Shown: positions 2,294-59,912 of the stretch, one piece after another
How the letters are laid out: every line of letters starts with the position of its first letter
Position numbering within the stretch: position 1 is the first letter of the stretch
DNA from: Candidatus Poribacteria bacterium
Lineage (GTDB): Bacteria > Poribacteria > WGA-4E > WGA-3G
Assembly (NCBI GenBank): GCA_965198235.1
Contig: OZ240248.1
Span: 2,400,001-2,464,000 of the forward strand
Length of the DNA: 64,000 nucleotides
Reading direction: 5' to 3'
Position numbers and translations under genes: made by a program
The notes under the pieces: model-generated
Databases searched by the model: none
What the model was told of the DNA's origin: nothing
What the model saw: only the letters and a program-made list of their open reading frames with translations

Positions 2294-2362
2294 GGTGTTT
2301 TTGATAGGGGTGTTTTTGCTTGGGTATTTCTGCGTATTGATAGGGTATTTCTGCGGATTTCC
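2294..2362 (+). repeat. G/T-rich modular tract, copy A, inside the loop of a GGCGAGG...CCTCGCC palindrome
   Basis: GGTGTTTTTGATAGGG GTGTTTTTGCTTGGG TATTTCTGCG TATTGATAGGG TATTTCTGCG GATTTCC; the same units recur at 5720, 50171 and 59832. Confidence 0.8.
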
Positions 2363-2658
2363 TCTAAGTATCCTCGCCTCCCCGCAGTGTGCAAGTAATT
2401 GTGGGTTTTACCATAGTTTTCAGCAATCAGGGGACAGCGGTCAGAAGAATAGCAGTCAGGTTAAAAAGTCGGAAAACCAATCTATAGAAAGCGGTGGAGG
2501 CAGTGGCGATTCGGTGTAAAGGAGTTGGGCTTGGATAGAGGCTTCAGATAGAAATCCACGCTTGTGAACGGATAAGGAGCCTCTATCCTACCTAAGCGTT
2601 AATTCGATGAAGTAATGTGTGGGAAACCGGCACAAGACCTGCCCCTACACTCGTTGTG

Positions 2659-5262
2659 CTACATTTGATGGGTCTCTATCAGTGCCGCGTTAAGGTCGTC
2701 CTTAAATTGATTTTCGTATCTCTCGTGATAGAATGAAGGGACACCGATGACGCGGTATTTGTTATTCTCTGTCAGGATTTTACTGTGGAATTCGGCACGA
2801 ATTTCCTGTAGGAATTTCTCTTTCCACCGGTCAGTGTCTGCGAGATGTTCACCTTTGGGTTCAATGAAGAGTTGGTAACTTAGGGACTCTCCATTTTTCT
2901 CGCGTAAGAACAGCACAAAATCGGGTTGAAAGGGAATGCCATCGGAGAAGTTATAGATGGAAAAATGCCCTTCGTTACGAAGCAGATAGATGTCCTCGTA
3001 GACTTTGTCTGATTCCTGAATCCATCTGTCCAGCATCTGCACGAATGCCTTTTCTTCACTCGTGCCGTAGAGGGTGTCATAAGCGAACCAGTCTCTGAGT
3101 TTGACCAGATACGCCGTGTCGCTGTCATCGGCACGCGGTGTGTCTACACTAAATTTCAAGGTTTTGTCGGTGAAAACAGCGCGGATGTGATGCTCATAAA
3201 AGTGTTGCGTGCCTTGGTATTCGGTAATCTCCTTGCGAATTTCGGATTCGATTTGACTGAGCAGCCCTTCACATGCGGACAATTTTGCGGAGCGATTCTC
3301 TTCCACGTCAGTGAGATTTCCCTTGAAGGTGATTGCTAAGCCGCCCAAATAGTTTTTGGAAGTGATAAATTCTCGGACGGATGCCAAGTGCGGGAAATAC
3401 TGGCTGAGCGAGGCGAACGTGAAAAACGGATTGCGCGCAATGGCAGATCTGACGATATTCTGTTCGATGTCAACTACCTGGACATCCCGACTGTTTTGGT
3501 GTCCCTGTTGCGCCGGCATCTCACTGTTTTCCATGACAGTCGTCACGCCGCCGGTTCCTGTATAGATGGTGTGTTCGTAGTTTTTCTGCCGGACGCTGAG
3601 TTTCGTTAAGTCCGCAAAAGATTGGACGTGTTGATAATCTTTCGGCACCTGTTTGTTGAGCCAGACAACGCCGTGTTTGTAGAGGTCGGTGTCCTTGAAC
3701 TCGGCTTTCAATTTGAGCTCGCGAGTCTCAAGGCGTTCGTCCATCATACCTTCGTCAATCAGTGCGGTGCGGATCTCGGAGATGTAGCGTGAATCGTGGA
3801 TGCTGTGGTAGTGGAGTTCTTCCAGCACGCGCAATTCACGGTCAAGGTCTTCATCAAACTTACGGCGGAACCGGTCTGTGTGGTCAGGTAGGACGAAGGG
3901 GAAATAGCGTGCGCCGCGCCCGATGAGTTGCGCCTCGGATATCGTTGTTTTTCCGATTTTGCTCTTCCCTGAGTCGCGCGCTTCATAACAACGGACGATG
4001 TCGAAGAGGTTCAATACATCCCACCCTTCGTTGAGTTTCTGCACGGCGAAGATGGCACGGATCGGATTTTTTGGGTCTTCAAGGTTGTTAAGGCGGAGCT
4101 GATACGTTTCCTTCTCATTCTCGTTGTTAACCGAGAGGCAGTGTTCCTCACGGAATGCCGATTTTAGGCGTTGGACCAATGCCTCGGTGGTGATGCCTTT
4201 TTCAGCAAAGAAACGGAATGCCTGTTGAACAACTTCGAGACTCGATTCCCGAAACTTATCAATCTGGGCGGCGGTGAGTTCATCAATCAGTTTGTGAAAG
4301 TTTGCCTTATTTTCTTGCGATTGCGCGATTGTCCGTTGTGCCTTGAATAGGATGACAGGCTTTAAATTAATGCCGTTATTCGCCGCGACCTGTTCTTTGT
4401 ACTGATTGAGAATGAGTGCCTGCAAGATGCGTGACTTCTGATCTAAATCAGAATGTACAAGTACGACCTCTTTTGAGAACTGATCCCTCCGAAAATTTAC
4501 CAAATCGTAGCGGTAGATAATTTTGTTCCGATACTTCTCCAGTATGGCAGGCGTTTCGTAATCAAGTGTGGCGGTGAATTCCATCAGTAGGTTATCTTCG
4601 TTCGCGTTAAAAATATTCTCAACTGTGTTTTCCCAACTCGGATCCTGCTTCGCCAGATCCAGTTCCAACTGCTGAGATCTGGTCTGGACGTTCATGTGGT
4701 GCGCTTCATCCGACAAGAGAACGATTTTCTTTTTCGCGAAGTCTTCAAGAGTTAAGCCGTTCTCCTTTTCCGTTGTCAGGTCCGAATGGAGTTTCTGGAT
4801 CGTTGTGAAGCAGATATTGATGGATTTCTCGTTGATTCCCTCAAAATTTTCCGCCTCTGTAACCTCAATACGCTCCCCTTCAATATGGATGTCTTCACTG
4901 AAGAGGTATTTTGAGGAACGCGGGTTGAGAAAGTTGTCCTTCGTTTTTTCAATGATATTGGTGGAGTTGACGAAAAAGAGGAAGTTGCGATAGCCTTTCT
5001 CATAGAGGTAAAGGATCAAGCCTGCCATGATGAGCGTCTTGCCGCTGCCGGTCGCCATGTTGAATAGCAGATGTAGGGGTTTTTCCTTGCCCGGAAGATC
5101 GTTATTGAAGTAGTAAATAAAACTCGCAAACGCGTCTTCTTGGTAGGGACGGAGTTCAAATGCAGGATTCAAATTTTGCGTAATGCTATCCGGCATTTCG
5201 GGTTTGGGGATCCCAAAGTTGAACGCGATTTCGAGTTGTTCATGAAGGAATTGTTCAAGCAT
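2659..5262 (-). CDS. res: Type III restriction endonuclease Res subunit (SF2 helicase + PD-(D/E)xK nuclease)
   Basis: MATGSGKT Walker A, DEAHH, LNEGWDVLN, QLIGRGAR, C-terminal FQPDF...FIEPKG. Confidence 0.9.
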   Translation of the reverse strand: MLEQFLHEQLEIAFNFGIPKPEMPDSITQNLNPAFELRPYQEDAFASFIYYFNNDLPGKEKPLHLLFNMATGSGKTLIMAGLILYLYEKGYRNFLFFVNSTNIIEKTKDNFLNPRSSKYLFSEDIHIEGERIEVTEAENFEGINEKSINICFTTIQKLHSDLTTEKENGLTLEDFAKKKIVLLSDEAHHMNVQTRSQQLELDLAKQDPSWENTVENIFNANEDNLLMEFTATLDYETPAILEKYRNKIIYRYDLVNFRRDQFSKEVVLVHSDLDQKSRILQALILNQYKEQVAANNGINLKPVILFKAQRTIAQSQENKANFHKLIDELTAAQIDKFRESSLEVVQQAFRFFAEKGITTEALVQRLKSAFREEHCLSVNNENEKETYQLRLNNLEDPKNPIRAIFAVQKLNEGWDVLNLFDIVRCYEARDSGKSKIGKTTISEAQLIGRGARYFPFVLPDHTDRFRRKFDEDLDRELRVLEELHYHSIHDSRYISEIRTALIDEGMMDERLETRELKLKAEFKDTDLYKHGVVWLNKQVPKDYQHVQSFADLTKLSVRQKNYEHTIYTGTGGVTTVMENSEMPAQQGHQNSRDVQVVDIEQNIVRSAIARNPFFTFASLSQYFPHLASVREFITSKNYLGGLAITFKGNLTDVEENRSAKLSACEGLLSQIESEIRKEITEYQGTQHFYEHHIRAVFTDKTLKFSVDTPRADDSDTAYLVKLRDWFAYDTLYGTSEEKAFVQMLDRWIQESDKVYEDIYLLRNEGHFSIYNFSDGIPFQPDFVLFLREKNGESLSYQLFIEPKGEHLADTDRWKEKFLQEIRAEFHSKILTENNKYRVIGVPSFYHERYENQFKDDLNAALIETHQM

Positions 5263-5543
5263 CGGACGGTTTCCAATTACCCTTGATCGGCATATGTTTC
5301 ATGAGAGTATCTCCTCTTCATTCCGAAAGCGACGGCTATGGATACTCATTAAGTTTACCTCTTGTTGGACGCAAAAGTCAAGTGAAAACTCAACAGGGGT
5401 GTGTAAATATTTCGGCAGCATCCCTGATGAAAGCAGTTTCAAACATGACCTTTTCTTCGGCTTGCCCGACTCGAATCCCTAAATTCCTATGGACATACCA
5501 CGCTGCTGGTGCGAGAAACTCTCTACCTATTAGAGAGTCTCTT

Positions 5544-5613
5544 TGCTCCAGCGGAGCAATATGTCTATAGAAAAAAATGGTTGGCTTCCCGCACTCCAGC
5601 GGAGTGCTATGTG
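5544..5613 (+). repeat. Bipartite palindromic element (TTGCTCCAGCGGAGCAATATGTCTATAG...GCACTCCAGCGGAGTGCTATG), left copy
   Basis: Two hairpins; reverse-complement copy at 7323-7528, degenerate copy near 7601-7627. Confidence 0.75.
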
Positions 5614-5719
5614 TCAAAGCAAATAATGAGGCATTAGAAAATGGTAAACAGATGAGTGTCAAAAACTATACACATCCCTCAACCAGAGCAATTCAATTGT
5701 CACAAATCACTTTTGTGGG

Positions 5720-5760
5720 AGGGGTGTTTTTGCTTGGGTGTTTCTCCCGATTTCTGCGGA
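5720..5760 (+). repeat. G/T-rich modular tract, copy B
   Basis: GGGGTGTTTTTGCTTGGG TGTTTCTCCC GATTTCTGCG GA. Confidence 0.7.
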
Positions 5761-5823
5761 TAGCCGCGCGTACCTATTCCCAATAATGTACTCAGGAAAC
5801 CGAAAACTGAATGACTCTGCCCC

Positions 5824-7221
5824 TCAACCGAGTATCAAGTTGTTCCAATCGGGGAATTCCCCATCTTCCAGAATCTTTATTATTGATTGCCGACACAAGT
5901 CTTGGGCTTTTGGAATAAATTCTGATGTAGCAATGCGCTCTTCTCCCTTCCTAATCTTAATCTTCTCGGGCATTGCTCCATTGTGAACAGCCTTGGAACG
6001 CAGGTCATATATTGCTTTAAACTCGTCCATTAACCTCTCCCGATCGCCTTTACATTTTCCCAAGTGCCAAGAAGCACGGAGACGGAACTGAAAAGATAAT
6101 TCGGAATTTCCATCTCTGTCTGATAGATAGAGGGATTCAAAGGCTATTCCTAAGTCAATCATTTTATCTTCGGAGGTCTGAGATGTTTTGGACTTTATCC
6201 ATCTATCAATTGCTATCTCAAATTTTCCCCTTGCTTTTTGATCAAATATTTTCAATATCTTGTATAGACGTATTGCCTCCTCTATTTCAGATTGTCCAAC
6301 TTCAACTTTACGTCCAATTGGACCTAAATACCATATTTTCCGTTCTACATCATCTGATCGGAAGACATCAACAGTAGAGAACTCCCAAAAATAATCAAAT
6401 ATAACCATGGTATTGCATGCCAATGATAATGCTTCGCAAAAAGTTTCTCTGAAATCCATTATCATTCCTTGATTGGATAATTTAATATCATCATCCTCAA
6501 CTTGAAATGGTAGGTTGACTATCTGCCCGTCGGCAATATTTGTATCTGAAGGTTTGTGAAATAGGGCATACCTTATGCGTTCAATTATAAGTAATGTTGT
6601 GCCTTTATCACGGTGTCTACGATGTCGATTGTATAAGCTATGATTAAGTTTATATTCAATATTACGTGGTAGAGGAACAAGACGTACTCGTTTATTTATC
6701 TGTATCTCTGTTTCTATTCTGATTCCCTCAAGAGATGTAGTAGAATGATATAAACTATATCTACCTTCTGGGCAACTGTCTTGATCAAAAGATAATACTG
6801 CTTTATCTAAACCGAAAGCAAGGGACATTTTTAATAAGTATTCCAAGATATCGGAGATATCGGACAAATTATAGGTCTGTGGGATGATTCGTTTTACGAG
6901 ACAAAATCCATCTTGAGTACATCCATCCACATTATATGTGGTATATCCAATCTTATTGTCCTCAATAACTTGGTTTAATTCTCTTCTAATAAATTCAAGT
7001 AAATCCGCTTTAGTTTTTTCTTTTGCGATATCTGGTTGATACAGAAGATAATAATTATTTAAGGAGTCATCACTTATTCCATAAAATTCGCATCTTTTTC
7101 GTAGTATTTCTATATATTTCTCCTTTGATATAGTACCGCTTTCAAAACGTACTCGTATAACCAAGTTATTCATTGCTTTCTGTAGCAACTGCCTTAGTTC
7201 CTGTTTTCTTTCATCAGTCAT
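5824..7221 (-). CDS. HEPN domain protein (ApeA-like), putative defence RNase
   Basis: C-terminal IDLGIAFESLY...YDLRSKAVHNG (RxxxxH HEPN motif); visibly AT-rich relative to neighbours. Start taken at ATG 7221. Confidence 0.7.
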   Translation of the reverse strand: MTDERKQELRQLLQKAMNNLVIRVRFESGTISKEKYIEILRKRCEFYGISDDSLNNYYLLYQPDIAKEKTKADLLEFIRRELNQVIEDNKIGYTTYNVDGCTQDGFCLVKRIIPQTYNLSDISDILEYLLKMSLAFGLDKAVLSFDQDSCPEGRYSLYHSTTSLEGIRIETEIQINKRVRLVPLPRNIEYKLNHSLYNRHRRHRDKGTTLLIIERIRYALFHKPSDTNIADGQIVNLPFQVEDDDIKLSNQGMIMDFRETFCEALSLACNTMVIFDYFWEFSTVDVFRSDDVERKIWYLGPIGRKVEVGQSEIEEAIRLYKILKIFDQKARGKFEIAIDRWIKSKTSQTSEDKMIDLGIAFESLYLSDRDGNSELSFQFRLRASWHLGKCKGDRERLMDEFKAIYDLRSKAVHNGAMPEKIKIRKGEERIATSEFIPKAQDLCRQSIIKILEDGEFPDWNNLILG

Positions 7222-7322
7222 TTCTTTGCCTTTCAATACAGAACGATTTATTACTCCCGGATAGAAATATGAGAAAAATTATTTGACATTATACGCATAC
7301 TAAAGTTTGGACAATTTTCAGC

Positions 7323-7528
7323 CATAGCACTCCGCATGAAGATTAACAAATAAATTGGGTAATCTTGGACTACAGGACGTGCGATGAATCGCACTACTAC
7401 GAACAGTTCTGCTTGTCATCGTGTTATTTATAACCCGTTTAGAAATTACCCGATTAAATACTTAAACTTCATCTGGAGTGCCAGGTTGCTGTAATTTACT
7501 GCTATAGACATATTGCTCCGCTGGAGCA
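7323..7528 (-). repeat. Bipartite palindromic element, right (inverted) copy, interrupted by the MITE
   Basis: CTATAGACATATTGCTCCGCTGGAGCAA at ~7502-7528 is the reverse complement of ~5544-5570. Confidence 0.75.
7336..7472. mobile_element. ~137-bp MITE-like insertion with imperfect terminal inverted repeats, inserted in a palindrome
   Basis: Left end ATGAAGATTAACAAATAAATTGGGTAAT vs right end (revcomp) ATGAAGTTTAAGTATTTAATCGGGTAAT. It splits CATAGCACTCCGC|TGGAGTGC. Confidence 0.65.
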
Positions 7529-7640
7529 ACCCCACAGTCTATCTGTTTTCGCAACATAGTTTCCAATAGGTTTAGCCATGCCAGAAGCGATACCGCCCCT
7601 CACACCAGTGGCGTGATATGTATATAGAGACTTACGCAAT

Positions 7641-7761
7641 GCGCAATAAATTGCGCTACTACGAACCGGGGTTCCCACCTGTTACTGGGAAAGGGCACTG
7701 CTTTTGAGAAACACACATCTTTCCAAGGTATATCTGTTTGTAGTAAGGCGATTCATCGCCT
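7641..7761. repeat. Pair of GTAG-type REP-like palindromes
   Basis: GCGCAATAAATTGCGC-TACTAC and GTAGTA-AGGCGATTCATCGCCT; relatives at 7379-7400, 51447-51468, 51497-51518. Confidence 0.7.
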
Positions 7762-7791
7762 GTCTGCGTAGGTCCTATATTTAAAAATTAC

Positions 7792-7820
7792 TTGACTTTT
7801 GAGGAATAATATAGTATTAT
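7792..7820 (+). promoter_or_regulatory. sigma70-type promoter for the small RNA candidate
   Basis: TTGACT (7792-7797) - 17 nt - TATTAT (7815-7820); predicted +1 at about 7827. Confidence 0.65.
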
Positions 7821-7826
7821 ATTATT

Positions 7827-7903
7827 GCCAGGGACGAAATGGCTCCATGCCACGTGATTGTTGGGCTGCGGTTCGCACAATCCTATATCCCTGGCTTTTT
7901 TTT
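7827..7903 (+). ncRNA. Structured small RNA convergent with the DUF3800 gene (DUF3800-associated RNA motif candidate)
   Basis: Closing stem GCCAGGGA/TCCCTGGC, inner stems TGGC/GCCA, GATTG/CAATC, TGCG/CGCA, followed by a T-run; promoter directly upstream. Confidence 0.65.
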
Positions 7904-8744
7904 ATTTCCTCCACCTTAAGGCTGCTGCTGTCAGAGGTTTATTTTGGGTGTAATAGACTCCATAACTGTTTTCCCGCATATCATCAATATCGTGTACAAG
8001 TCGAAAAGAATCCCATAGATATACCAAATATCGCTCCTCACCTCGCTCATAGAGTCTCTGCAATGCCCAAACAAAATAGTCAACGGCTTGCAAACTGGCA
8101 TGCTCCTTTGGTGTCAAGGCAGACACATAGGTGACAGGATTGTTGCTGCTGTCCGGTTCTTGTGTCAGAGACTCGGAGGCAGTTTCAACCAGTTTTCGCA
8201 AAGTGTCAAGTCTGTTAGATTTACCTCGTTTTGAGAAAGTAATATTATACCTACTATGCTGACTCAATCTTTCTTTGAGCAAAAAACCTGTTAGATAGTC
8301 GTAAAGTTCATTCGGATGATACCGATAAGCGGGTTCTCGTTTGTTGCGTTGGCGTACGTACTCAAGAACACTCAATTTATCGGCGACGACGGCAAAAAAG
8401 TGTAACCCCTCAGTGTCCCGTAAAATCTGAAAGACATCCCTGCGGACTTCCGGCAAATCATCTTTGGCATGGAATGCGAGTGCCGTTTTGCGCGCATCTG
8501 GTTGCATAGATGGTACATTCTTGAAATAGGAATCGCTCATCAGTTGTGTTCGCAGTTCATCGAAACGAATCTTTAATGCCGCCGGGTCTGGCACATCCAA
8601 TAAACCGAGTATGAAGAATCGGGAACATCCTTCTGTACCTACCAATGCCTTTCCTGTTCTGGAAAAGAGGGTGCTATCGCCGCCCTCGTCTACAAAATAG
8701 TGGCGGATTGAAGGAGGTGTCTTTGAGGTTTGTTTATTCTCCAT
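7902..8744 (-). CDS. DUF3800 family protein
   Basis: N-terminal YFVDEGGD, FHAKDD, C-terminal LQAVDYFVW (QxxD) pattern typical of DUF3800; start overlaps the mod stop. Confidence 0.75.
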   Translation of the reverse strand: MENKQTSKTPPSIRHYFVDEGGDSTLFSRTGKALVGTEGCSRFFILGLLDVPDPAALKIRFDELRTQLMSDSYFKNVPSMQPDARKTALAFHAKDDLPEVRRDVFQILRDTEGLHFFAVVADKLSVLEYVRQRNKREPAYRYHPNELYDYLTGFLLKERLSQHSRYNITFSKRGKSNRLDTLRKLVETASESLTQEPDSSNNPVTYVSALTPKEHASLQAVDYFVWALQRLYERGEERYLVYLWDSFRLVHDIDDMRENSYGVYYTQNKPLTAAALRWRK

Positions 8745-25891: not shown

Positions 25892-27388
25892 TTAGCGCGA
25901 ACCCTTTATAATTGCCCATAACGTCTTCAAGATGATTTTGATATCCAAGGCGAGAGACCAATTTTCGATGTAATATCGGTCATAAGAGATCCGCTCTTCA
26001 AGGGAGGTATTGCCCCGCAAGCCGTTGACTTGTGCCCATCCGGTCATACCAGATTTAACGCGCTGCCGAGCAAGATAGTGCGGAATCGATTCGCTGAACG
26101 TATCGATTAATCCAGACATCTCTGGACGGGGACCGATGAGGCTCATATCGCCCTTGAGAACGTTGAAGAATTGCGGCAGTTCGTCTAAACTCCAGCGTCT
26201 CAGGAATTTTCCAAGTGGGGTTTGCCGCGGGTCATCGCTTTTTGCCCATACATGTCCAACTTTTTCCTCAGCATCGGCGCGCATGGAACGGAATTTGTAA
26301 ATCTTGAACCGCTTTCCACCTCTACCGACCCGTTCCTGACGGAAAATCGCTCTGCCGGGTGAGGTCAAGCGTATAGCGATCGCGATTGTTAACATGAGCG
26401 GGCTTAGCACTATCAACGCGGATACGCTAAGGACAATGTCTATAAGACGCTTGACGATGCCGCGTCCGCCCTGCATCGGTGTCTCCCTTAATTGGAGTGC
26501 CGGTATACCATCAAAAAAGGTAATAGTGTCCCTGCTGTCTCTGATAAATTCGGAGAGTTCGGGCAGGACATTGATTTGGACTGGCACCCCTTCGCACGCG
26601 TGGAGAATCTGCAGGATAGTGTCATTCGGCACCGTCGGTGATACGATGAAAAGCGTATCAAGTCGATGTTTTCGCACCAATTCAAGTACATCTTGACTTT
26701 TCCCAAGGGACTGCAATTGGCGTTCGGCGTTCGGCGTTCGGCGTTCGGTTAAGAGGTTGTGGGAGGGGTTTGTAACCCCGATTTCCCTCTGGCTGACTGC
26801 TGATGGCTGACTGCTGATGGCTGTTTCATCGATTATCCCTACTACTTCGTAACCACTATCCGCTTTAGCATTCAGGACGTTGATGAATTGTTCGACGCGG
26901 GTGTCGTAGTTTCCGACGATTGCCAGTCGCTGGACGCCGACCCCTTGGGCGTGAATTGATTGTCGGAAACGATGAAGGACCAATCGACCCAAGAACAACC
27001 CTACGAGACTGAAACCGGTAGCTAAGAGCATAACCCAGCGCGAGTAGGCATCGTGATGATAGATGAAAAAGAGTGTGGCTAACGTGGCGATAAGCGAGAT
27101 ACCAGCGGCTTTGCAGAGTGTCCAGAACGCTGAAAACGTCGCATTGCTTTCTGGTCGATAGAGCTTCAAAACTTTCAACGTCATTAACCAGATAATCACC
27201 ATCAGCGGGATGAGCCGAAAATAGTCGTCAAGGGGCGGGGGACCCCCTTTGTGCAGGGCGAGGGCTTCAGGTGTCCAACCCGATTCAAATCGGACCCAGT
27301 ATGCTACGACAATTGCGGTGGCGACGAAACAGAGATCTAATAGAACTGTAATCGCGATGAGCAAATGATCGAGCGTTTTGTTGTTCAT
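25892..27388 (-). CDS. Undecaprenyl-phosphate glucose phosphotransferase (WcaJ family) with an in-frame repeat insertion
   Basis: KRLIDI, FRQERVG, KFRSM, SLDELPQF, GPRPE, GMTGWAQVNG. Confidence 0.9.
   Translation of the reverse strand: MNNKTLDHLLIAITVLLDLCFVATAIVVAYWVRFESGWTPEALALHKGGPPPLDDYFRLIPLMVIIWLMTLKVLKLYRPESNATFSAFWTLCKAAGISLIATLATLFFIYHHDAYSRWVMLLATGFSLVGLFLGRLVLHRFRQSIHAQGVGVQRLAIVGNYDTRVEQFINVLNAKADSGYEVVGIIDETAISSQPSAVSQREIGVTNPSHNLLTERRTPNAERQLQSLGKSQDVLELVRKHRLDTLFIVSPTVPNDTILQILHACEGVPVQINVLPELSEFIRDSRDTITFFDGIPALQLRETPMQGGRGIVKRLIDIVLSVSALIVLSPLMLTIAIAIRLTSPGRAIFRQERVGRGGKRFKIYKFRSMRADAEEKVGHVWAKSDDPRQTPLGKFLRRWSLDELPQFFNVLKGDMSLIGPRPEMSGLIDTFSESIPHYLARQRVKSGMTGWAQVNGLRGNTSLEERISYDRYYIENWSLALDIKIILKTLWAIIKGSR
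26719..26823. repeat. Heptamer-repeat + REP element inside the WcaJ-like CDS
   Basis: (GGCGTTC)x4, GTGGGAGGGGTTTGTAACCCCG palindrome, (GGCTGACTGCTGAT)x2; similar intergenic elements at ~36053-36160, ~10874-10893, ~2421-2460. Confidence 0.7.
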
Positions 27389-29685: not shown

Positions 29686-29877
29686 TTTTACCTTGCGGAG
29701 GAATCAGGTGAGTTTTGGACTTGACGCATCTTCCTTAAATCCGCCCTCCACTACGTTACGGGCTTACGTTTCTGGGTACTCGGAGGACAAAGGTTTCCTA
29801 CAGTTTCCGATCGGTTCCGCACGCGCCGATGTTGCGTGCTACAATTTTTGGTGGATTGGATCCAGAAACAGCGAGGT

Positions 29878-34544: not shown

Positions 34545-34658
34545 TGTGAGTTGCTCCTTGCTGGCGAGGTTTGAAACCTCGCTTGATTAGTTAGACGTAC
34601 TCAGGAGAGCACACCTATGGAAAGTTGTGGCGGCACCGTGAACGCTGCGCCATAAAAT

Positions 34659-47796: not shown

Positions 47797-50700
47797 TCAC
47801 CTCTTGATGAGCATTTTCCGAGTCGCATGGAAAGTTCCAGTTTGAATTGCGTAAAAATATACGCCGCTTGCGACAGATTCACCGGTGGCGTTACGACCAT
47901 CCCAATAAGCGGTGTGTGAACCTGCCTTGCGGTAGCCGAGTGCTTTAAAATAGATACGCCTCCCTTGGGCATCATAAATATGAAGGGACACGTTCATATC
48001 TGAGGCGAGTTGATACGGGATCCATGTCTCTGGGTTAAATGGGTTAGGGAAATTTTGGTTTAAACGGTTGACTAACGTAGGTTTAACGGCGTTGGGAGTC
48101 CAGTCAGATTGCGTAGGTTCTTCCACAGCAAGCGAATAGCCTTCTGGGTGCACACGAAAGATCCGAAGTTGATACAGATCCGCGACATAGAGGGCACTTC
48201 CTACTGACTTCAATTCAAACGGGAACCTGAGTCCACGAAAGCTTGAGGTGGCTGTCAACGTGCGTGTGTCAATAACCTGAACGCTATTGCTATCGAGTAG
48301 ATAGAGAGAGTCGCCACTTACGGTCGCATCGATTGGGAGGGCATCATTCTCGTATGCGTCTTGCAACTTCGGGTTGTTCGGTTCAGACACATCAAGCACT
48401 GCGACACCGATGCTACTGTCCAACAGGTAAGCACGTTCATCCGAGAGCGCAACGCCTGTTGCATTTCCTTGCGTAGCGTAACTTCCGACCAGACGCGGGA
48501 CTGCCGGTCCTGTAATGTCGAAAACGTGCAGTCCTCCTTCAAGAGCGGCGACATAGGCGTGTACAGGTGGGTTGGTATCGACGACAACACGATAAGCACT
48601 CCCTGGCATGTCGCGTTTGGATACAATTCTGCTTTGCTGAGGAGCCCGACTATCAACAACAATGAGGGATCCTGTGCAGAGGTAGGCGTAACCTTCGTGT
48701 AACGCGATGTCCGAAACGGGTGAAGTTGTCGGAATATGCGAGGCAATCGTATCTGTAGCGAGATTGACAACGTACATTCCCGTCTCAGCAGCGACGAAGC
48801 CATACCCATTTTGGACGCGAATTTTGGTGCCGCTTGCAGCCTCAAACTGGTTGTTAGAGGTGATGATCTTCGTAGACAACGGCAGTTTTTTTGTCACGCT
48901 GCCATGATAAGGTGTCGTAAATTCGAGGGCTTTCAATCCGCCTACACCGTTTGCGACGTAGACAGTCCGTTCGCCCGCGTCTGTCTCAACGATGTCAAGT
49001 CCATAAGCTGTGCCACCAGATGCGTACCGATGTAACCACTTCGGCGATTCTGATTCGCTTATGTCTATTGTTTGGATTCCGCCCTTTCCATCAGCGATGT
49101 ATGCGAGTGTATCTCTGAGGACTATATCGGTTGCATTGCCGGATGTAGGTTGTGTGGAAATTCGCCGTGGCTGTTGTGGGTTACGCACATTGATAATATG
49201 GAGTCCTGTTTGCCGGTCCGTAAGATAAACGGTGTCGTTACGGAATTGAATACCTGTGGCAAGTCCTGGTGTATTAAGGCGGAAATCTATTTCGGGATTT
49301 TGGTTATCCGTAACATCCACTAAGATGAGGTTGCCTGAGGCGACATAGGCGTGGGTTGTCCCTCGTGTCTCTTCGATCTCATGGGCAGTGGCTAAAATTG
49401 GCACAACACTGCGCACAACAAAATCACCGAATGGACTTGGATCAAGAATAAGAAGCCCATGTCTATCATCACTGAAATAGACAGTACCGTTGTGGATGGC
49501 AACATTGATCGGCGTGCCTGCAGTGCGAAAGAAACGTCGGGGTCGAGGCACTTGCATATTGTGGACATCCCGTAAGTTGAAAACAAGCATTCCGCGCTCA
49601 CGGTCAAGCGCGTATAGTTTGTCATCAGCGACTCGAACTCTGTGTACACTTGTAAACCCACCAAGTGTCTTTACAATACTCGGCTTGCTTGGGACTGCAA
49701 TATCAATGACCTGTACACCTATAGCACCGTCAGCGACGTAAGCAGTATCTCCCGCAACGGCGACAGATCGCGCCCTGCCCGGCGTGGCAATCTCACCAAT
49801 TCGGGCGGGTTGTGTCGGTTCTATCAACGTGAAGATTTCAAGCCCCCAATCACTCGCTGCGTAAAGATGGGAGGCATTCGGATCACCGATTACAAGGTCG
49901 GTATAATCACTGGCAAGATGAATTTGGGTCCTCGGTTCAAGCTGCGTTTCCGGTGTAAGCTTCGCGGGCGAAGCACTCCGTTGGGTGAGATTGCCGAGGG
50001 CGTAGGTTACAGCGTCAGGCATAGTGTCCGACGCACGCTGGCGTGGGACCTCTACTGCGCCACCGTTGTTGGCGGCGGGCAAATCCACGGCGACATAGCG
50101 GAATGTCTGTGGAACATCTGCCGTTACCATTAGCACAATCTTACCGTCGCGCAGGAGTCCTTCTCGGCGAGGAAACGCCCAAGCAAAAACCCCTCTGTTT
50201 TTCGTGTTAAATGGGATGGGTGTAACAACGGGACGTCCGTTGGATGGCAGATAAAGGGTTGTCGCGTAGAGGTTTCCTGAGCCACTGCCGATCACCGATA
50301 GATTCAAGGTTTCGGGTAGATTCTCAAAGACAATATAGTACGCCCCCCATTGGTCGATGGGAATATTGTTCGCCTCGTTCGGGTAGCTGCGGACGCGCGG
50401 TGTTACAGCACTCACCTTTCGGTTACGTAGGGCAGCGTAACCGAGTTGTTTATTTTGAGCCTGCGTATTGGTCCAATTCGCAAGCCCCCATTTCAGAAAG
50501 ACTTCAGGAAATCTGTCACTCTTTCCGTCGCCTGCCAGGGCAGCGTCAATCGCTTGTTCACCGAGTGCGTCCGTCTCTATAATGCTGCGGATAATCTCCG
50601 GGCCTCCATACTGCTCATAGAGGTAGAGCATGAGCAAAAAGGTCCCGCCGTAATACACATCCGACGTGTTTGTATAGGCAAGCGAAATGCTGGGGTTTGC

Positions 50701-51442: not shown

Positions 51443-51523
51443 GTTTGTAGTCGTGCGATTTATCGCACTGCTTCGCAGTGAGAACGGGTGAACGACGGGC
51501 AATGAATTGCCCTACTACAAACC
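51443..51523. repeat. Inverted pair of GTAG-type REP palindromes (REPIN-like)
   Basis: GGTTTGTAGTCGTGCGATTTATCGCAC ... GGGCAATGAATTGCCCTACTACAAACC. Confidence 0.7.
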
Positions 51524-51733
51524 AAAGCAGGCACCCATAATTTGAAAGTAGATGAAGTAGTCGTTATTCCTCAGCAGACGTACTAATTCAACAAATTTCA
51601 GTAATCATTAATTTCACTATTATCTATTTTACAATAGTTGTGCTGTAAATTCAACCGATACCAGAAATCCCTTTACAGACCACAATCCCTCTGCTATACT
51701 TATATGTAAAGACACCAAAAAGGAGCAACCTCA

Positions 51734-52759: not shown

Positions 52760-52772
52760 CGCCGAGGTTTCT

Positions 52773-53534: not shown

Positions 53535-54588
53535 AGTCAAAGTTGGCGTTATCGGATGTGGCGGTATTTTCCGCGCGCTCCATGCCCCTTATTACCAAGA
53601 ACCGACGCGACGCGCAGACATCGTCGCAATCGCCGATGTCAATGAGGCATCTGCAAATGAGCAAGCAGACCGGTTTGGTGCCGATGCCTACACGGACTAC
53701 CGCGCGCTCCTCGACAGACAAGATATAGACGCTGTTGATGTCTGTGCCCATCCACGTCCACACCTTGAAATCACCCGTGCTGCCGCTGCTGCCGGCAAAC
53801 ACATCTTGATGGAGAAGCCGATGTGTTGTAACGTCGCGGAGGGTGAAGCAATGATCGCCGCCGCTGAAGATGCCGGTGTTCTCCTGATGGTCGCCTATAT
53901 GATGCGGTTCAACCCGGGTTACATGAAACTGAAGTCGTTATTGGACGATGGCACGCTCGGCACACTGCAGATGGCGTATTCCAATCAGGTCGGTTGGTTC
54001 TCACCGGAACGGCATCCGTGGCTCTTTGTGAAGGCAGAATCGGGCGGTATGTTAGTGGAGCAAGCCATTCACGAACTCGATATCTGGTTGTGGTTATACG
54101 GTCCCGCCTCCACTGTCTACGGGTTCACCAGTCATGTTCCGCTCGGTGGCACCTACCCACCTGCCGAACAAGCTGTGGAAAACAATGCCGTGCTGACCGT
54201 GCATTTCAAAAACGGTGGTGTCGGTATGATGATGAAGAGTTGGGCATCTGAGATTCGGAACAGCGGTAACGGTCTTGTCACCAGCAAAGGTTCTGCGACA
54301 TTGATTCAGAATGGACTCCGTTGGAAAACCCACGACATGGCAGAGGCGGAAGAGTTCACTGCGCCGGTGCCAGATGACGGCACCTACCGCAATGTGCCGG
54401 ATGCACATCGCCAACAGCGGTATTGGGGCATGGCAGCGAAAGGCACGAGCATCGACCATTGGCTCCAGTGCATCGCTGGTGAAGCAGAACCGACAACCCA
54501 CGGACGTATCGGCAGAGACGGTATCGAGTTGGCAGAGGCAACGTATCGTTCCTCCCAAATCGGCGCGCCGATTTCGTTGCCACTGTAG
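53527..54588 (+). CDS. Gfo/Idh/MocA oxidoreductase
   Basis: VGVIGCGG, GKHILMEKP, SGGMLVEQAIHELD. Confidence 0.9.
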   Translation: MDRVKVGVIGCGGIFRALHAPYYQEPTRRADIVAIADVNEASANEQADRFGADAYTDYRALLDRQDIDAVDVCAHPRPHLEITRAAAAAGKHILMEKPMCCNVAEGEAMIAAAEDAGVLLMVAYMMRFNPGYMKLKSLLDDGTLGTLQMAYSNQVGWFSPERHPWLFVKAESGGMLVEQAIHELDIWLWLYGPASTVYGFTSHVPLGGTYPPAEQAVENNAVLTVHFKNGGVGMMMKSWASEIRNSGNGLVTSKGSATLIQNGLRWKTHDMAEAEEFTAPVPDDGTYRNVPDAHRQQRYWGMAAKGTSIDHWLQCIAGEAEPTTHGRIGRDGIELAEATYRSSQIGAPISLPL

Positions 54589-54711
54589 CTGTGTCTCCTT
54601 TTTTTGTAGAAACAATCCCACAATATCAGCCCATACGCTGTAGGGCGGACTTCACTATCCGCCCCTTACTACCTAAAATTTGCTTTTCAAGCCAAAGAGG
54701 AGAGGGAAGCT

Positions 54712-55656
54712 ATGACTGCAGGAATCGTGTTGGTTTTAATGGGGCTTGCATCATCCCAAATTATTAGCAACAACATAATAGGAAGCATTGAAGTAACGCC
54801 GAGCATCGAAATCGTGGAGATACCGAGCGAGTTTTCTGCTTTCAGGCAAGTGGGCTGTAACAAATATGTCAACGTTTTCGGGATTCACATCTTCGCAAGC
54901 CTAACGACATCTGAAGATAAGCTCTCTCACGCCGCAGGAGTTTTGGCACAATACCTCGATAACGACGAAGACGGTGTTCCTGACAACACGCGGGTTCTCA
55001 GTCATCTGGTGAGCCGAAACGTCTTCATCATTATGCCCGGAACAGAGGCGGAGATGGAGGGGTTGGAAATGGATCTGGTAGCAGAGTCGGATTATCGATT
55101 TGGTCAAGACCTGTATGGCGAAGAAACCAAGCCGGATTTCCTTGTTGATGGCAAAATCAACGTCCCCGATGGCGGATACTACGACGGCGCTTTAGAGGAA
55201 ATTCTGCATCCTATTACACAACATGGTTATGCCAACGCTTACCCCGAGGTGTTCGGGGAGGAACGGGGGTCCATCTTAGCGAAGTGCATGGATGCCGCCC
55301 GTGGTGGATATTTCGAGCAAGTGCCACAAGGGGGTCCCAAGAGCGGGTATCCGGCAGAAGCTTGGTATCACTATACGGATGAAACCTGTGACTATGGTTG
55401 CATGGTTACGGAGTATATCTATTGGGCTTTGACATCGATATTGGGGACACAGGACTTTCCAGGACGACACGAGGCACTTGAAGTCGAATGGGAATTGAAT
55501 ACCAGAGAACGGGTTAGAACTGGGGATGCTGCAGTATATGCACTTCTGACAGACCCTCAGTACAAATTTCCGACCAAAGCACCGGATGGAAACTACAAAC
55601 CATCGGCGTTTCCCGTTACAGTTGTTCCTATCATCGCTATTAAAGATGAAGATTAA
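54712..55656 (+). CDS. Secreted hypothetical protein, zincin-like (LEEILH)
   Basis: QYLDNDEDG, LEEILHPI, TEYIYW. Confidence 0.55.
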   Translation: MTAGIVLVLMGLASSQIISNNIIGSIEVTPSIEIVEIPSEFSAFRQVGCNKYVNVFGIHIFASLTTSEDKLSHAAGVLAQYLDNDEDGVPDNTRVLSHLVSRNVFIIMPGTEAEMEGLEMDLVAESDYRFGQDLYGEETKPDFLVDGKINVPDGGYYDGALEEILHPITQHGYANAYPEVFGEERGSILAKCMDAARGGYFEQVPQGGPKSGYPAEAWYHYTDETCDYGCMVTEYIYWALTSILGTQDFPGRHEALEVEWELNTRERVRTGDAAVYALLTDPQYKFPTKAPDGNYKPSAFPVTVVPIIAIKDED

Positions 55657-55776
55657 TGGGGGTAGTAGCACCTTATGAAACAACAGATCGCAGTGTTGCA
55701 GTAGGAGATAGAGGCACGCAAATAAGAATAACCAACCTGATTGCACGCCGCAATCGGAAATCAGAAGGCGTTCATA

Positions 55777-56955
55777 ATGAGAATTCGTTTTATGTTTCAC
55801 AAAGCCGTTTCTCTTTTTTGCTTTGTGGTTTTAATTTCTATGCACTTTGTGCATGAAGGCTATTCCCAAACGCAAATCGAACAAAGCGTTTCCTTAAAAG
55901 AGCAGCAGGAAGGTAGGACCCTATTGGTTGGTGCTGCAACACTATCTGGGCTTCTCCTCTACGGACCGGGGACAGCGCGCCTCCTTGAGATTGAATCAGG
56001 GAGTCAATTCGCTGGATTGGAACTACTCATTGGTGGCGGTTCTTTTATAGGTGCCCTTCAACTCACAAAAAATCATCGACTCGGTGTTGGACGATCCAAT
56101 TTAATCCTATCGGGCAGCTTCGCCGGGACCCTATATGGGTTCGGGGTGCCAGTGTTGTTTGAATCAGAGAATGACAAGGCTTACTTTGCTTCTGCGATGC
56201 TTGCTACGCCAATAGGGGGTCTGATTGCCCATAGACTTACTGCTCACAGATGGTTTAAAAAGGGTGAATCATATTTGATGACCAACGGCGGATTTGTGGG
56301 TGGATTGTACGGGCTTGCGGTTCCATATATCGCCAATATCGAAAATCTTGAAGATTGGACGCAAACCAAAATCTATGTTGTGTCCGCAATGGTTGGAGTC
56401 CCTATCGGGACATGGGCGACAACAAAGTTGATTTACAACAAACCGATTAATGAAGGGCGATCACATCTCATCTCCTTTGGCGGATTAGTTGGTAGTGCCT
56501 ATGCAAATGGAATTGTTTCCCTACTGGATATAGAATCATCGCGAGCCTATGTGTTAGCCTCCATGGTCGGCTTACCAACGGTAGCATATCTTGGCTATAA
56601 ATTGACGACTGCGGGTGAATACACACCCGGTAGGGCAGCTTTGATACAAATTGGCGCGTATGCGGGTGCTCTGTTTGGCAATGGGGTCGTTCTGCTGGCT
56701 GAGGCGGAAAGCCATAAACCTTATGTTGTCGCGAGTATGCTTGGATCAGCCGCTGGCATGTGGTTTGCACACCATTCTACACGAGGTTGGGGCGAGAAAA
56801 CTCCTTTTACGAGAAACGATCTCATACCTAAATCAGAAGAGTTCACCGTTTCCTTGCCTTCAATCGATAAATGGTTTACGCTCGGTTTGATGGCACTCCG
56901 TAAACCAGCTTTCATGGCTAATTTTCCTGTGGAATTGGTCCGAATCTCATTCTAA
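55777..56955 (+). CDS. Gly-rich multi-pass membrane protein with internal repeats
   Basis: Signal peptide; repeated GR..LI..GG..G units. Confidence 0.6.
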   Translation: MRIRFMFHKAVSLFCFVVLISMHFVHEGYSQTQIEQSVSLKEQQEGRTLLVGAATLSGLLLYGPGTARLLEIESGSQFAGLELLIGGGSFIGALQLTKNHRLGVGRSNLILSGSFAGTLYGFGVPVLFESENDKAYFASAMLATPIGGLIAHRLTAHRWFKKGESYLMTNGGFVGGLYGLAVPYIANIENLEDWTQTKIYVVSAMVGVPIGTWATTKLIYNKPINEGRSHLISFGGLVGSAYANGIVSLLDIESSRAYVLASMVGLPTVAYLGYKLTTAGEYTPGRAALIQIGAYAGALFGNGVVLLAEAESHKPYVVASMLGSAAGMWFAHHSTRGWGEKTPFTRNDLIPKSEEFTVSLPSIDKWFTLGLMALRKPAFMANFPVELVRISF

Positions 56956-57071
56956 TCAAAACGGCAGGGTCATTTGGTTTCCAATGCGAATCCGAGTATA
57001 GAGAGGTTTCCAACCCTAATCGTTATACCGTGGGGTGAGATCTTCGTGCCTCACCCTTACAGCACGCACGT

Positions 57072-59813
57072 TCACATCGAAATCCCCAATAACCCCCGCG
57101 TCAACTGAAAATCCGTATTTCCTTTGCCGTGCAGTTTCGGGGTATACTGCCGCGAAGCCACCTCCACGATTAACGCTAATAGGTCGTCAACATTAGCAGA
57201 TGTCAAGTCCAGGTCTGCGCCGTAATTGGCTTGTGTTGCGGCATCTGTAGATATCTGAATCAGCGGCACCATCACATGCGATTGCAGAGGGGCACCGACG
57301 ATATGCGCAAGTGCCAGATCCACACCCGTCGCGCCTAAGCCTGTCAGCGTCTCCGTCTGTTGATCGGTAGGAGTCTCCATGATATGGAAGCCCGCCTTTT
57401 CAACCCGCTGTCCATACGCCAGTGTCGGCGTAATAGTTTTCGGCGTGTCTGTCAGAGAAACTACTGACGGTTTCCATTCCGCATTCGCTGGCACGACAAC
57501 CGTTCCACCTGCCGCGACAACTCTGTGCGTCAATTGCGTCAACGACTCCGAGACTTCTTCAATTATTGTCCCAGTTGATGTCACGGCGATGCAAAGGTGT
57601 TCTAATCCCGCATCAACAACTGGAACAGACGGTTTATTGGAAAGTTCGTCCGAGAACCAGGCTTGCACCTTGTCAATAACAGCATCAATTCCGCCATCCA
57701 ATTGCACGCTCGCCCAACCGTAGTGTTCCGGTGATATACCGAGTTTCTGGATCTCATGTCGGACGTGGTCGTTGTGGGTTTTCTCACAACCGTGTTCAAG
57801 GAGTAGACCGAGGGCAACCGTCGGATGCGTGAGGTGTCCAATCATCGTGCGGGTGTAAATCTCCTCGGAACGTCCACTGGAGACACCACATCCTTCCGTA
57901 TGCGGTAGCGCAACAAAGCGTGATATGCCTTGCTTTTCCCCGATTCTCCGCTCGTTGCAACGGTGCGCGATCATTTGTGCAATCTGACCCGAACAGAGGC
58001 TGGTCGGTAAAATCAGTCCCACCTGATCTGTGCGATATCCGACTTCTGTTTGGAGCGCACGGAATTGTAATTTTGGGGGGAGTCGCGATTCGGAGATCGC
58101 TCCTACCAGGGAGGTTTCAATCGGAATCGGTTCACCAGATTTCAATTCGGATTCTATCAAAAGTGGGTCTAAATCTACGGGACCCGTCTGCTTCCAATCG
58201 CGCCACAGTGAAACCTGGGAGTGTCCCGCTTTCTCCCCAACAGAACGTTCACCCGATGCGATGTCCACCGTCAAGTCAAGCATAGACTCACCGAGTTCTT
58301 CCATCGGTATGCCGTCAAGATACGCACCGGCATTCACGTCCATATCCTTGGAAAGCATTTCATATCGTCCGGTTGTGGTGACGATCTTGATTGTCGGCAC
58401 GAAGGGAAAATTGGTAATTGACCCGTTGCCTGTTACAAAGAAAATCATGTTGGAACCGGATGCCACCTGCCCGGCGATGCTTTCCAAATCGTTGCCGGGA
58501 CTGTCCATGAAATAGTAACCCGGTTTTTCCATGAGTTGACTGTAATCAATGACATGATCAAGGCAGACATCGGGATGCCGTTTCATTGCCGCGCCGATCG
58601 ATTTAATGGCGATGTTATAGAGTCCACGGAAGTTGTTGCCACCAGATGGATTCGCCTCTGTGGAGTGTCCGTGCCACGCGGCACGCTCCTTGAAACGTTC
58701 AATCGTCCTGAGGAACGTACGCGCTGTCGGTAGGTCACGGGCGTTCTGCAACACATAAGCCTCGGAGCCAATAAGTTCGTCGGTTTCTGCGAGGTTGGCA
58801 CACCCGCCATAACGGATGACCTCTTTCGCAACGTAAGCGGCGAGTGGATTGCCCGATACACCCGAAAACGCATCGGAACCGCCACACTGCAGGGCGATTT
58901 TGAGATGTTCCAGAGATTGCGAGGCGCGCGCGACGCTGTTCACGCTGTCCAGCCATCCGTTGATAATCTTCGCACCACTGGCTAAGTCTGTGTCGAAACT
59001 CCCCTGTAGTTGATAGAAGTGGTGGATGATGTCACCCAAATCATATCCTTCGCGCAGCATATACGCCTTGAGCATTTCGTTTGTAACCGCTTCAGTACCA
59101 TAGTCAACGAGCAGTATTGCACCGATGTTCGGATGGACGGTGAAACCTGCGAGCGTTCGGAGCAGCATATCAATGTTATTGGGAGTCTTGCTTTCACCCC
59201 CCTCGGTGTGCGTTACGGCAACAATACCGTCTATGTTCGGATAGGCTTCAGCACTCTCTGAACACATGTCGGCAAGTCTTCTCGCGAAGCCAGAGGTCCG
59301 TGCAGTCGTCCCCATAACGACGATGTAATTTCGCGTGCCAACGCCACGATTACCGGGACGTTGATAACCGAGGAAGGGACGTTCGTCCGCATGACGCGGC
59401 ACCTGTTTCCCTGAGCGGAATTCTGCTTCATCCAACGCATAGGGTGCCATTTTATCGCTGAAGTTAGGTGTCTCCAGCAATTCAAAGGGTAGGTTTCTAA
59501 TCGATAACGAATCGATCATCTTCTGATTGCACACGTAATCGCCGGGAGCGATGGAACGTGTGGCAAAACCGAAAGGTAGACCCCACGACAAGAGTGGCTC
59601 GGTTTCCGAAATCGATTGGACAGCGAACCGATGTCCTTCTAAAATAGTGTGCGATAGTTGAAGATGCTGCCCATCATAATGGATACCCGTACCACCCTCT
59701 AAGGTTTGTGTTGCGATGGCAACGTTATCGTCCGGCGAAGGCAGCCGTGCAACAGAGGTAAAATCATTTTTTAATTTACCTTGCGGTTCGGTCAAGTGGT
59801 TTGTGGTTTTCAT
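57072..59813 (-). CDS. UxaA/GarD-family dehydratase with SAF domain and a duplicated C-terminal module
   Basis: DNVAIA, VGTRNY, HTEGG, LQCGGSDAFSG, TGNGS; second HTEGCG...GCEK; RBS GGAGGAG before ATG 59813. Confidence 0.85.
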   Translation of the reverse strand: MKTTNHLTEPQGKLKNDFTSVARLPSPDDNVAIATQTLEGGTGIHYDGQHLQLSHTILEGHRFAVQSISETEPLLSWGLPFGFATRSIAPGDYVCNQKMIDSLSIRNLPFELLETPNFSDKMAPYALDEAEFRSGKQVPRHADERPFLGYQRPGNRGVGTRNYIVVMGTTARTSGFARRLADMCSESAEAYPNIDGIVAVTHTEGGESKTPNNIDMLLRTLAGFTVHPNIGAILLVDYGTEAVTNEMLKAYMLREGYDLGDIIHHFYQLQGSFDTDLASGAKIINGWLDSVNSVARASQSLEHLKIALQCGGSDAFSGVSGNPLAAYVAKEVIRYGGCANLAETDELIGSEAYVLQNARDLPTARTFLRTIERFKERAAWHGHSTEANPSGGNNFRGLYNIAIKSIGAAMKRHPDVCLDHVIDYSQLMEKPGYYFMDSPGNDLESIAGQVASGSNMIFFVTGNGSITNFPFVPTIKIVTTTGRYEMLSKDMDVNAGAYLDGIPMEELGESMLDLTVDIASGERSVGEKAGHSQVSLWRDWKQTGPVDLDPLLIESELKSGEPIPIETSLVGAISESRLPPKLQFRALQTEVGYRTDQVGLILPTSLCSGQIAQMIAHRCNERRIGEKQGISRFVALPHTEGCGVSSGRSEEIYTRTMIGHLTHPTVALGLLLEHGCEKTHNDHVRHEIQKLGISPEHYGWASVQLDGGIDAVIDKVQAWFSDELSNKPSVPVVDAGLEHLCIAVTSTGTIIEEVSESLTQLTHRVVAAGGTVVVPANAEWKPSVVSLTDTPKTITPTLAYGQRVEKAGFHIMETPTDQQTETLTGLGATGVDLALAHIVGAPLQSHVMVPLIQISTDAATQANYGADLDLTSANVDDLLALIVEVASRQYTPKLHGKGNTDFQLTRGLLGISM
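58081..58106. repeat. REP palindrome inside the UxaA-like CDS
   Basis: AGTCGCGATTCGGAGATCGCTCCTAC, 23/26 identical to intergenic 10898-10923. Confidence 0.7.
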
Positions 59814-59831
59814 GTTCTCCTCCGTAGATTT

Positions 59832-59912
59832 GAAGAAACACCCAAGCAATACGCAGAAATACGCAGAAATCCACAGAAATACCCAAGCAAAAACCCCTAT
59901 CAAAAACACCCC
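59832..59912 (-). repeat. G/T-rich modular tract, copy C
   Basis: Minus: GGGGTGTTTTTGATAGGG GTTTTTGCTTGGG TATTTCTGTG GATTTCTGCG TATTTCTGCG TATTGCTTGGG TGTTTCTTC. Confidence 0.8.

Follow-up and report, generated by a model that had tools for sequence, protein, structure and literature searches.

Introduction

The small dispersed repeats (SDRs) of the Nostocaceae, among them SDR4, SDR5 and SDR6, are reportedly dispersed units of about 21-27 nucleotides (nt). They are said to be lineage-restricted and to insert into other repeats or specific short sites without transposon-like ends. One paper describes a precise insertion of SDR5 between nt 3 and 4 of HIP1 (PMC4390886), and another states that SDRs are found only in Nostocaceae (PMC5861425). 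Here we analysed a window of 64,000 nt (positions 2400001-2464000 of contig C1) of G000, a 5.17-Mb Candidatus Poribacteria metagenome-assembled genome (MAG; 2 contigs, 48% G+C, 96% complete). The window carries four G/T-rich tracts made of short recurring units. They belong to a family built on a 21-nt module and represented by 232 parsed tracts in G000, and sequence has been transferred between copies of this family at different loci.

Among described systems, SDRs are the closest in kind; the comparison is with their description only, and the overlap may be larger. Like SDRs, the Poribacteria module is a dispersed unit of ~21 nt without terminal inverted repeats or target-site duplication. 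Unlike SDRs as described, it resides in Poribacteria and targets a G-run or the top of a hairpin, not HIP1 (GCGATCGC) as for SDR5. HIP1 is not enriched in the G000 genome; together with the Poribacteria matches reported below, this ruled out a cyanobacterial origin. It further departs from that description in that the module splits into L and R sub-units, forms arrays with a strict grammar and has old copies that are overwritten. Judged from its listings, a literature search returned no description of small repeats in Poribacteria.

Other systems share some of these features. Like REP/REPIN-RAYT systems, the module is short, abundant, genus-specific and associated with hairpins, and G000 has RAYT-like genes flanked by REPs; unlike REPs and REPINs, the tract is non-palindromic and unstructured, and inserts into REP-like hairpins instead of flanking the RAYT-like genes. 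Pneumococcal BOX elements (A-Bn-C) and the BIMEs of E. coli are dispersed mosaic repeats whose internal modules vary in number. The tracts are similar to them in their modular build, variable module number and dispersal, but the Poribacteria modules are 10-15 nt long, strand-asymmetric and co-oriented, and enter coding sequence in frame. Telomerase and the rolling-circle cDNA repeats of defence reverse transcriptases likewise yield short units iterated in one orientation with slips in register; however, G000 has no reverse transcriptase gene, the sites are internal to the chromosome and other DNA copies seem to have been the templates. As with single-strand elements of the IS200/IS605 type, there are no terminal inverted repeats or target-site duplication and the module lies in one orientation 3' of a short target (loosely RRGG(T/G)G), but it has no subterminal hairpins. 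The absence of terminal inverted repeats and target-site duplication separates it from miniature inverted-repeat transposable elements (MITEs). The module fails at least one defining feature each of REPs, MITEs, IS200/IS605-type elements and reverse transcriptase-templated addition.

Results

Tracts are built from units that follow a strict grammar

Tracts were parsed across the whole G000 genome with a tokeniser that allowed units in any order; the chain stops at unfamiliar unit types, and array counts and sizes are therefore lower bounds. The 232 parsed tracts total 9,609 bases, the longest being 197 nt. The minimal module, which makes up 125 of them, is a non-palindromic, G/T-rich sequence of 21 nt, TGTTTTTG(CTT/ATA)GGG(T/C)GTTTC(C), and corresponds to one L unit followed by [T/C]GTTTC; approximately 100 tracts are arrays. 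The following units were recognised:

L unit: (GTG/G)TTTTTG(CTT/ATA)GGG
R unit: [TGC][AG]TTTC(CC/CTC)TG[CT]G
P unit, the truncated return form: TATTG(CTT/ATA)GGG
E unit, which closes the tract: [TC][GA]TTTC

Chains opened with L or P in 231/232 cases. L was followed only by L, R or E, and R only by R, P or E. A full L was never found directly after R: all 56 returns (46 after R10 and 10 after R12) had the truncated TATTG form, equivalent to switching within the T-run. Arrays run from 5' units through 3' units to the truncated return unit, with the junctions between units falling at the microhomologies GGG and TTT/TTTC. L-L junctions had periods of 13 and 15, and a period of 14 was spotted once, by eye. 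A unit-transition analysis had been suggested by an earlier reading of the window made from the sequence alone (hereafter the sequence-only reading), and the strict co-oriented grammar that it revealed looks like templated copying with switching. Tracts folded as single strands no better than shuffles (z +1.4, -0.8 and +0.65), and the module has no hairpin of its own.

A variant L unit was found at 11 loci (e.g. 2704937, 3727187, 895469), with a 48-nt middle (CAATGTAATACAAGGAATGG...CTAAATCCGG) in place of CTTGGG and the same termini; internal 20-22-nt pieces are doubled in some copies.

The module is abundant and restricted to the genus

In the window, TTTTTGCTTGGG had 4 matches with at most one mismatch (0.37 expected) and ATTTCTGCG had 5 (0.85 expected). 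Since 0/100 shuffles reached 4 and 5, respectively, chance is excluded for the window tracts. TTTTTGCTTGGG is the commonest 12-mer of the G000 genome, with 260 copies. A 19-mer core, scanned with at most one mismatch alongside a reversed-pattern control that gave 0 in every genome, was detected in 24/24 genomes of the same genus (9-195 copies each) and in 0/16 genomes of other genera in the order. It was also present in 4/5 further same-genus genomes, giving 28/29 in total; the sole genome without the module, G074, is the smallest (4.4 Mb) and is repeat-poor. Matches to the exact core in a species-level genome collection were nearly all Candidatus Poribacteria records from several assembly pipelines, and among the 80 matches listed, three had other titles (two 'uncultured bacterium' and one Pyrinomonadales). 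The module search gave 1 match in viral contigs. A sequencing or assembly artefact was ruled out, the module being found in dozens of MAGs from differing assemblers and in none of the scanned genomes of other genera.

The unit sequence is kept across species whose genes are just 65-90% identical, while insertion sites differ. Genes and junctions were scanned genus-wide in 61 genomes including G000 (60 relatives). The R-to-P junction was present in 37 of the 61, with 23 copies in G000, 1 in G018 and none in G006, G024, G014 and G061. A metagenome scan for within-species polymorphism returned 76 matches to an 18-mer, 1 of which was homologous (85% identical, empty site).

Sequence is transferred between copies at different loci

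One R variant junction, GGGTGTTTCCTCTGCGGATTTC, occurs seven times in G000; of the 60 relatives, three contain it (2, 1 and 1 copies) and 57 do not. Five of the G000 copies are one and the same 60-nt composite at unrelated loci. The composite is pristine in G000, whereas relatives have only a minimal copy at those five loci, often mutated. At 2775702, all five relatives compared have point-mutated minimal versions, with some mutations common to G006 and G024. Some relatives are empty at 4768747 and 1098221, and G006 and G024 have no module at 1415071. At 5054472, three ATA units are present in G000 where G024 has one CTT unit. Recent lineage-specific sequence could not arise independently at five old sites; we therefore conclude that information moved between loci and overwrote older copies. 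The L variant with the 48-nt middle, found at 11 loci, is a second instance of such transfer. Old copies at orthologous sites decay by point mutation in five relatives, and one locus is occupied in all six species compared, by decayed minimal copies in the five relatives.

Orthologous sites are empty in relatives

Synteny was compared over 57-88 kb regions of five closed (complete) relatives. These regions contained 0/4 window tracts and had 0-2 tracts at other positions. The sequence-only reading had proposed a search for empty sites in related genomes, and empty orthologous sites were found for six coding-region events:

Site 3 of the window: +15 net (21 new nt replace ~6), with GGTTTTTGCTTGGGCGTTTCC between AGAGG and TCGCC in G000 and (G/A)CATCT between the same flanks in orthologs
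5063800: +21, common to G000 and G018, empty in 4 relatives
1707267: +21, clean, with TGTTTTTGCTTGGGCGTTTCC between AAG and TCGATGG, filled in G000, G018 and G024, empty in 3 relatives
990806: +21, in a hairpin loop, the hairpin element having entered the gene earlier
3099641: +18, 23 new nt replacing 5
4768747: +57 compared with the empty site, a 60-nt composite in G000 where two relatives are empty, one has a minimal copy and two have decayed minimal copies

Site 3 was empty in 26/26 orthologs spanning it; two more sequences end at the site. At 990806, the hairpin is present with a short TTCC loop and no tract in G014 and with another insert in G061, and is absent from three relatives. The new sequence measured 21-23 nt in the five minimal events, sometimes with replacement of 1-6 target nt. 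None of the six events showed a target duplication or inverted ends, which the sequence-only reading had likewise failed to see at the tracts. Each of the six length changes was divisible by three, which is the outcome to be expected if genes retain only those events that keep the frame.

Empty sites resembled the flanks of host repeat families over 3-7 nt per side (by eye, in 4-5 events, without statistical control): ACGAGT..TGG resembled family d, G.GAGT.GTG..CGCG family e, GAGG..TCGCC family h and GTAG.TTGGGTT family i. In two cases a few flank bases had shifted to the donor type, or ~20 nt of the donor hairpin had been brought along with the tract. At 1707267, G024 is 91% identical to G000, and it groups with G006 elsewhere; alleles may have been exchanged between species, or the site may have been used twice.

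Tracts follow G-runs in many unrelated host repeats

Tracts occupy at least 15 unrelated small repeat families, and every family is also known without a tract. Filled and empty copies were counted as follows:

Host family GCTGGCGAGG: 16 filled, 136 empty
Host family GTAGGAGCGA: 11 filled, 124 empty
Host family TGTGGGAGGG: 9 filled, 51 empty
Host family GTAA.G.A.TGGAGG: 17 filled, 44 empty
Host family GTTAAAGCACGA: 12 filled, 17 empty

Comparison of filled with empty copies bore out the proposal that tracts start at host G-runs and replace hairpin loops, with the tract placed after the G-run and few loop bases replaced (GAGG^TTTCC, GGAGGG-CG-GAT, GCGAG-TTGTG-CTCGC). The 5' flank is a purine/G-run, with G at -1 in 215/226 tracts and at -3 in 211/226. 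The consensus upstream of the T-run is a loose RRGG(T/G)G, and TTTC is followed by CCC or TTC, then A. The notion that the tracts share no flanks does not hold, given this common 5' run and the CCC or TTC on the 3' side. A perfect stem of at least 6 bp brackets 53/232 tracts compared with 19 ± 4 for shuffled flank pairs, indicating that loops are favoured, yet are not the rule. Host hairpins often have a 5' GTAG. Tracts are found in both orientations, also within coding sequence on either strand, and often in cassettes just upstream of start codons.

The tracts were rightly judged not to be a fixed-sequence MITE, and they lack terminal inverted repeats and target-site duplication; decayed pieces of one long MITE were ruled out by the variety of host contexts and by bare 21-nt inserts in genes. 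In seven cases (e.g. 2815162, 2703547, 4184479) a tract interrupts an older minimal tract that lies in reverse complement (GAAACACC^...^AAGCAAAAAC). The resulting inverted copies are of the kind that a switch of strand in the course of synthesis would produce.

The four window tracts and their host elements

All four tracts were confirmed near the positions at which they had been reported, and neither inverted ends nor target duplication was found there. The uninterrupted host copies that had been noticed with them were located as well, and are given last:

2295..2361, + strand: site 1 tract, six units (L15a L15c R10 P11a R10 E6), between GCTGGCGAGG and the TTTCC..CCTCGCC of a hairpin
2226..2415, + strand: site-1 host repeat, MITE-like, ~190 nt, bearing hairpin and tract, recurring elsewhere in G000
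5724..5744, + strand: site 2 tract, minimal 21-nt module, in the loop of TGTGGGAGGGG..CCCGATT
50172..50192, - strand: site 3 tract, minimal module, in frame inside a 1201-amino-acid LVIVD-repeat gene with a type IX secretion system (T9SS) sorting domain
59835..59909, - strand: site 4 tract, seven units (L15a L13c R10 R10 R10 P11c E6), after GTAACGAAGTGGAGGG
34560..34582, + strand: empty host hairpin GCTGGCGAGG-TTTGAAA-CCTCGC (DNA fold z = -4.5)
60711..60734, + strand: empty host hairpin GCTGGCGAGGTTTCCTAATCTCGC
26758..26784, + strand: empty host hairpin TGTGGGAGGGGTTTGTAACCCCGATTT
29737..29765, - strand: empty copy of the GCCCGTAACG.AGTGGAGGGCGGATTT element

The ~190-nt host repeat of site 1 is missing from the orthologous def-helicase spacer in four syntenic relatives (G061, G073, G006 and G075), indicating that the site-1 tract arrived, or stayed, as a passenger. 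At site 2, an R-like tail extends to ~5762 and includes CCCGATTTCTGCGGAT after the module; its assignment to host or tract is ambiguous, and the empty hairpin copy in G061 is a paralog, not an ortholog. The site-3 tract encodes the peptide GVFAWAF in frame, as had been read; the gene had been taken for a protease, and Pfam detected no protease domain in this LVIVD/T9SS gene. The site-4 tract lies within a cassette upstream of a dehydratase gene start, and the whole cassette is missing in G006. Rfam gave 0 matches across the window.

G000 also contains 152 copies of a dispersed cassette, CCGCAAGG[ATG]AAA, that ends at start codons; 77/152 have an ATG 4-14 nt downstream, and the upstream half of the cassette is the hairpin GCC(C/T)GTAA(C/T)GAA(G/A)TGGAGGGC. 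The window copy (59780-59945, - strand) adjoins the conserved start of a galactarate/altronate dehydratase gene and is missing there in G006. This cassette may be a mobile leader or a translation-start module. Short tandem repeats, GGCGTTC x4 and GCTGACTGCTGATG x2, were found at 26719-26746 and 26792-26819. Related CTGCTGA runs expand in an open reading frame (ORF) linker of G014, at the locus orthologous to G000 1415071.

Candidate machinery encoded in G000

A reverse transcriptase or primase-polymerase encoded elsewhere had been envisaged by the sequence-only reading. The reverse transcriptase is not supported by a search for RVT_1, which gave 0 matches in the 2-contig G000 assembly while control genomes matched; primase-polymerase genes were not searched for. 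No conserved single template locus was seen, although no exhaustive search was made. Of the six Y1_Tnp genes in G000, three belong to IS200/IS605 copies and are immediately followed by a second long ORF (presumably tnpB); the other three are RAYT-like, flanked by their own REPs, which differ from the module, and with no adjoining tract.

The RAYT-like genes are located at C1 606000-607900, 1898300-1899600 and 3853300-3854600, with flanking REP families GCACTCCAGCGGAGTGC...ATGTCTATAGAAA and CACCCCGTAGGGGTG; one of them has four tandem ~120-nt repeats upstream. Mismatch-repair loss was rejected as a cause of array activity, MutS_V being found in 61/61 genomes. A CRISPR-like array was also found at C1 2733923-2738066, with 56 copies of a 24-nt core (GTTTCAATCTCGTAATCGAGATGC) at a spacing of ~77 nt.

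Discussion

The explanation we favour, to which we give about an even chance, is that of an SDR-like, genus-wide family of very small dispersed repeats whose copies template one another by DNA-templated, short-homology copying. Seeding would place the 21-nt module directly 3' of a purine/G-run, without target duplication and sometimes replacing 1-6 nt, mostly at the top of the 5' arm of small REP-like hairpins or look-alike sequences. From there, the module could spread passively aboard host repeats, by the gene-conversion-like overwriting or extension of existing copies from other copies, and by local gain and loss of sub-units. The chemistry would be DNA-templated copy-choice or break-repair synthesis, in which a 3' end in GGG or TT(T) anneals to another copy and copies it, slips where GGG and TTTC provide microhomology and uses a short match to get back to its original locus; neither an RNA template nor a reverse transcriptase would be required. 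The likeliest templates are other genomic DNA copies, because the 21-nt module inserts as a unit, arrays are transferred between loci and copies hitch-hike. Of the earlier proposal of iterative templated copying with re-priming at microhomologies, the copying is retained on the strength of the grammar and the GGG/TTT junctions, and the single dedicated template and the reverse transcriptase are dropped. We infer the enzymology, that is the initiating nick or break and the polymerase, as well as the direction of the bias.

Several observations weigh against this explanation. The three clean, exact 21-nt insertions and the same termini around the 48-nt middle look like defined ends handled by an enzyme. 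The homologies seen by eye at new sites are only 3-7 nt, and ordinary RecA recombination needs longer homology. The 23 copies of the P junction in G000 stand against 0 in G006, G024, G014 and G061; array-rich and array-poor species are patchy among close relatives, which hints at a trans-acting factor, none of which was found. Y1 genes are present in 60/61 genus genomes, and the sole exception, G074, is likewise the genome without the module. An end-recognising enzyme is a serious rival.

Under this rival, a defined 21-nt non-autonomous element and its longer versions with the same termini would be moved by a trans-acting nuclease or transposase, for example a HUH Y1 enzyme of the RAYT or IS200-IS605 kind acting on single-stranded DNA at G-run/hairpin targets, with arrays produced by repeated insertion and slippage. 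We consider it possible, if on balance unlikely. It agrees well with the exact +21 at 3 loci, the single orientation always 3' of a short G-rich target, the lack of target-site duplication and terminal inverted repeats, and the 48-nt cargo carried between the same termini by 11 copies. The 5' GTAG common on host hairpins is found in REPs as well, and GTAG has a role in RAYT cleavage; the six Y1_Tnp genes of G000 (3 of them RAYT-like), the concurrent absence of module and Y1 gene in G074 and the patchy array activity among relatives point the same way. The module, however, has no hairpin of its own, the REPs beside the three RAYT-like genes differ from it and no tract adjoins those genes. The strands of the tracts showed no clear leading/lagging bias (119 vs 110, with origin and terminus taken from an asymmetric GC skew and uncertain). 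Y1 count correlated weakly with module count (rho 0.34, p 0.07) and with array count (rho 0.32, p 0.09; n = 30, related genomes), and the best Y1 match of G024, which has 195 modules, is weak (E 1.2e-16). Nested insertion of whole modules cannot yield R units or the truncated return unit, and the inserted segments sometimes include donor flank. A form of DNA writing without reverse transcriptase, in which nicks at G-run/hairpin sites, possibly made by REP-associated HUH nucleases, would prime stuttering copy-choice synthesis with other copies as template, is more doubtful and in our view improbable.

The module might instead be a selected functional cis-element, a protein-binding site or RNA motif whose strength is tuned by arrays. 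The extreme sequence conservation across the genus and the frequent placement in cassettes just upstream of start codons would suit this role. It is nevertheless very unlikely, as old copies point-mutate at orthologous sites in 5 relatives, positions are not conserved, both orientations occur, including within coding sequence on either strand, and neither an Rfam match in the window nor a predicted structure was found.

No more credible is a telomere-like process in which a reverse transcriptase or primase-polymerase copies a short dedicated RNA or DNA template repeatedly onto breaks. Arrays of co-oriented 10-15-nt units in variable number, joined at microhomologies, are what such a process would leave, and the unit sequence is conserved among species that do not share sites. 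Nonetheless, G000 lacks RVT_1 despite the recent spread of an array variant in its lineage, old copies were overwritten at fixed loci and no single conserved template locus was seen (in a search that was not exhaustive); a lineage-specific variant alongside other architectures is more easily reconciled with many DNA templates than with a single master. The least probable explanation is replication slippage acting at every site by itself, without movement between loci: tandem periods of 10, 13 and 15 nt and unit numbers that vary within one host family would be expected from it, but L-L periods are 13/15 and not the 14 that slippage on a minimal module predicts, one rare variant junction recurs at 7 unrelated loci, 5054472 has ATA units in G000 against a CTT unit in G024, and as a sole cause it is already contradicted by the transfer between loci.

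Ever since SDRs were first reported, the spread of repeats much shorter than any transposon has lacked an explanation. The genus studied here comprises >60 species, many with closed genomes, in which empty, minimal, decayed and expanded states coexist at the same loci, and this opens a direct way of testing rates, donors and associated genes. By adding 5 to 19 codons in frame (the largest composite measuring 60 nt, or 20 codons), the module generates variation in proteins; expression may also be affected where it sits in repeat cassettes adjoining start codons. It offers a marker for strain typing and poses a risk to short-read assembly and to gene calling. If DNA writing without reverse transcriptase were true, a module of less than 30 nt would be installed, lengthened and rewritten, with shorter alleles overwritten in a manner resembling a homing drive. 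Elements too small to have recognisable ends would then have a mode of movement of their own, which could explain the cyanobacterial SDRs too.

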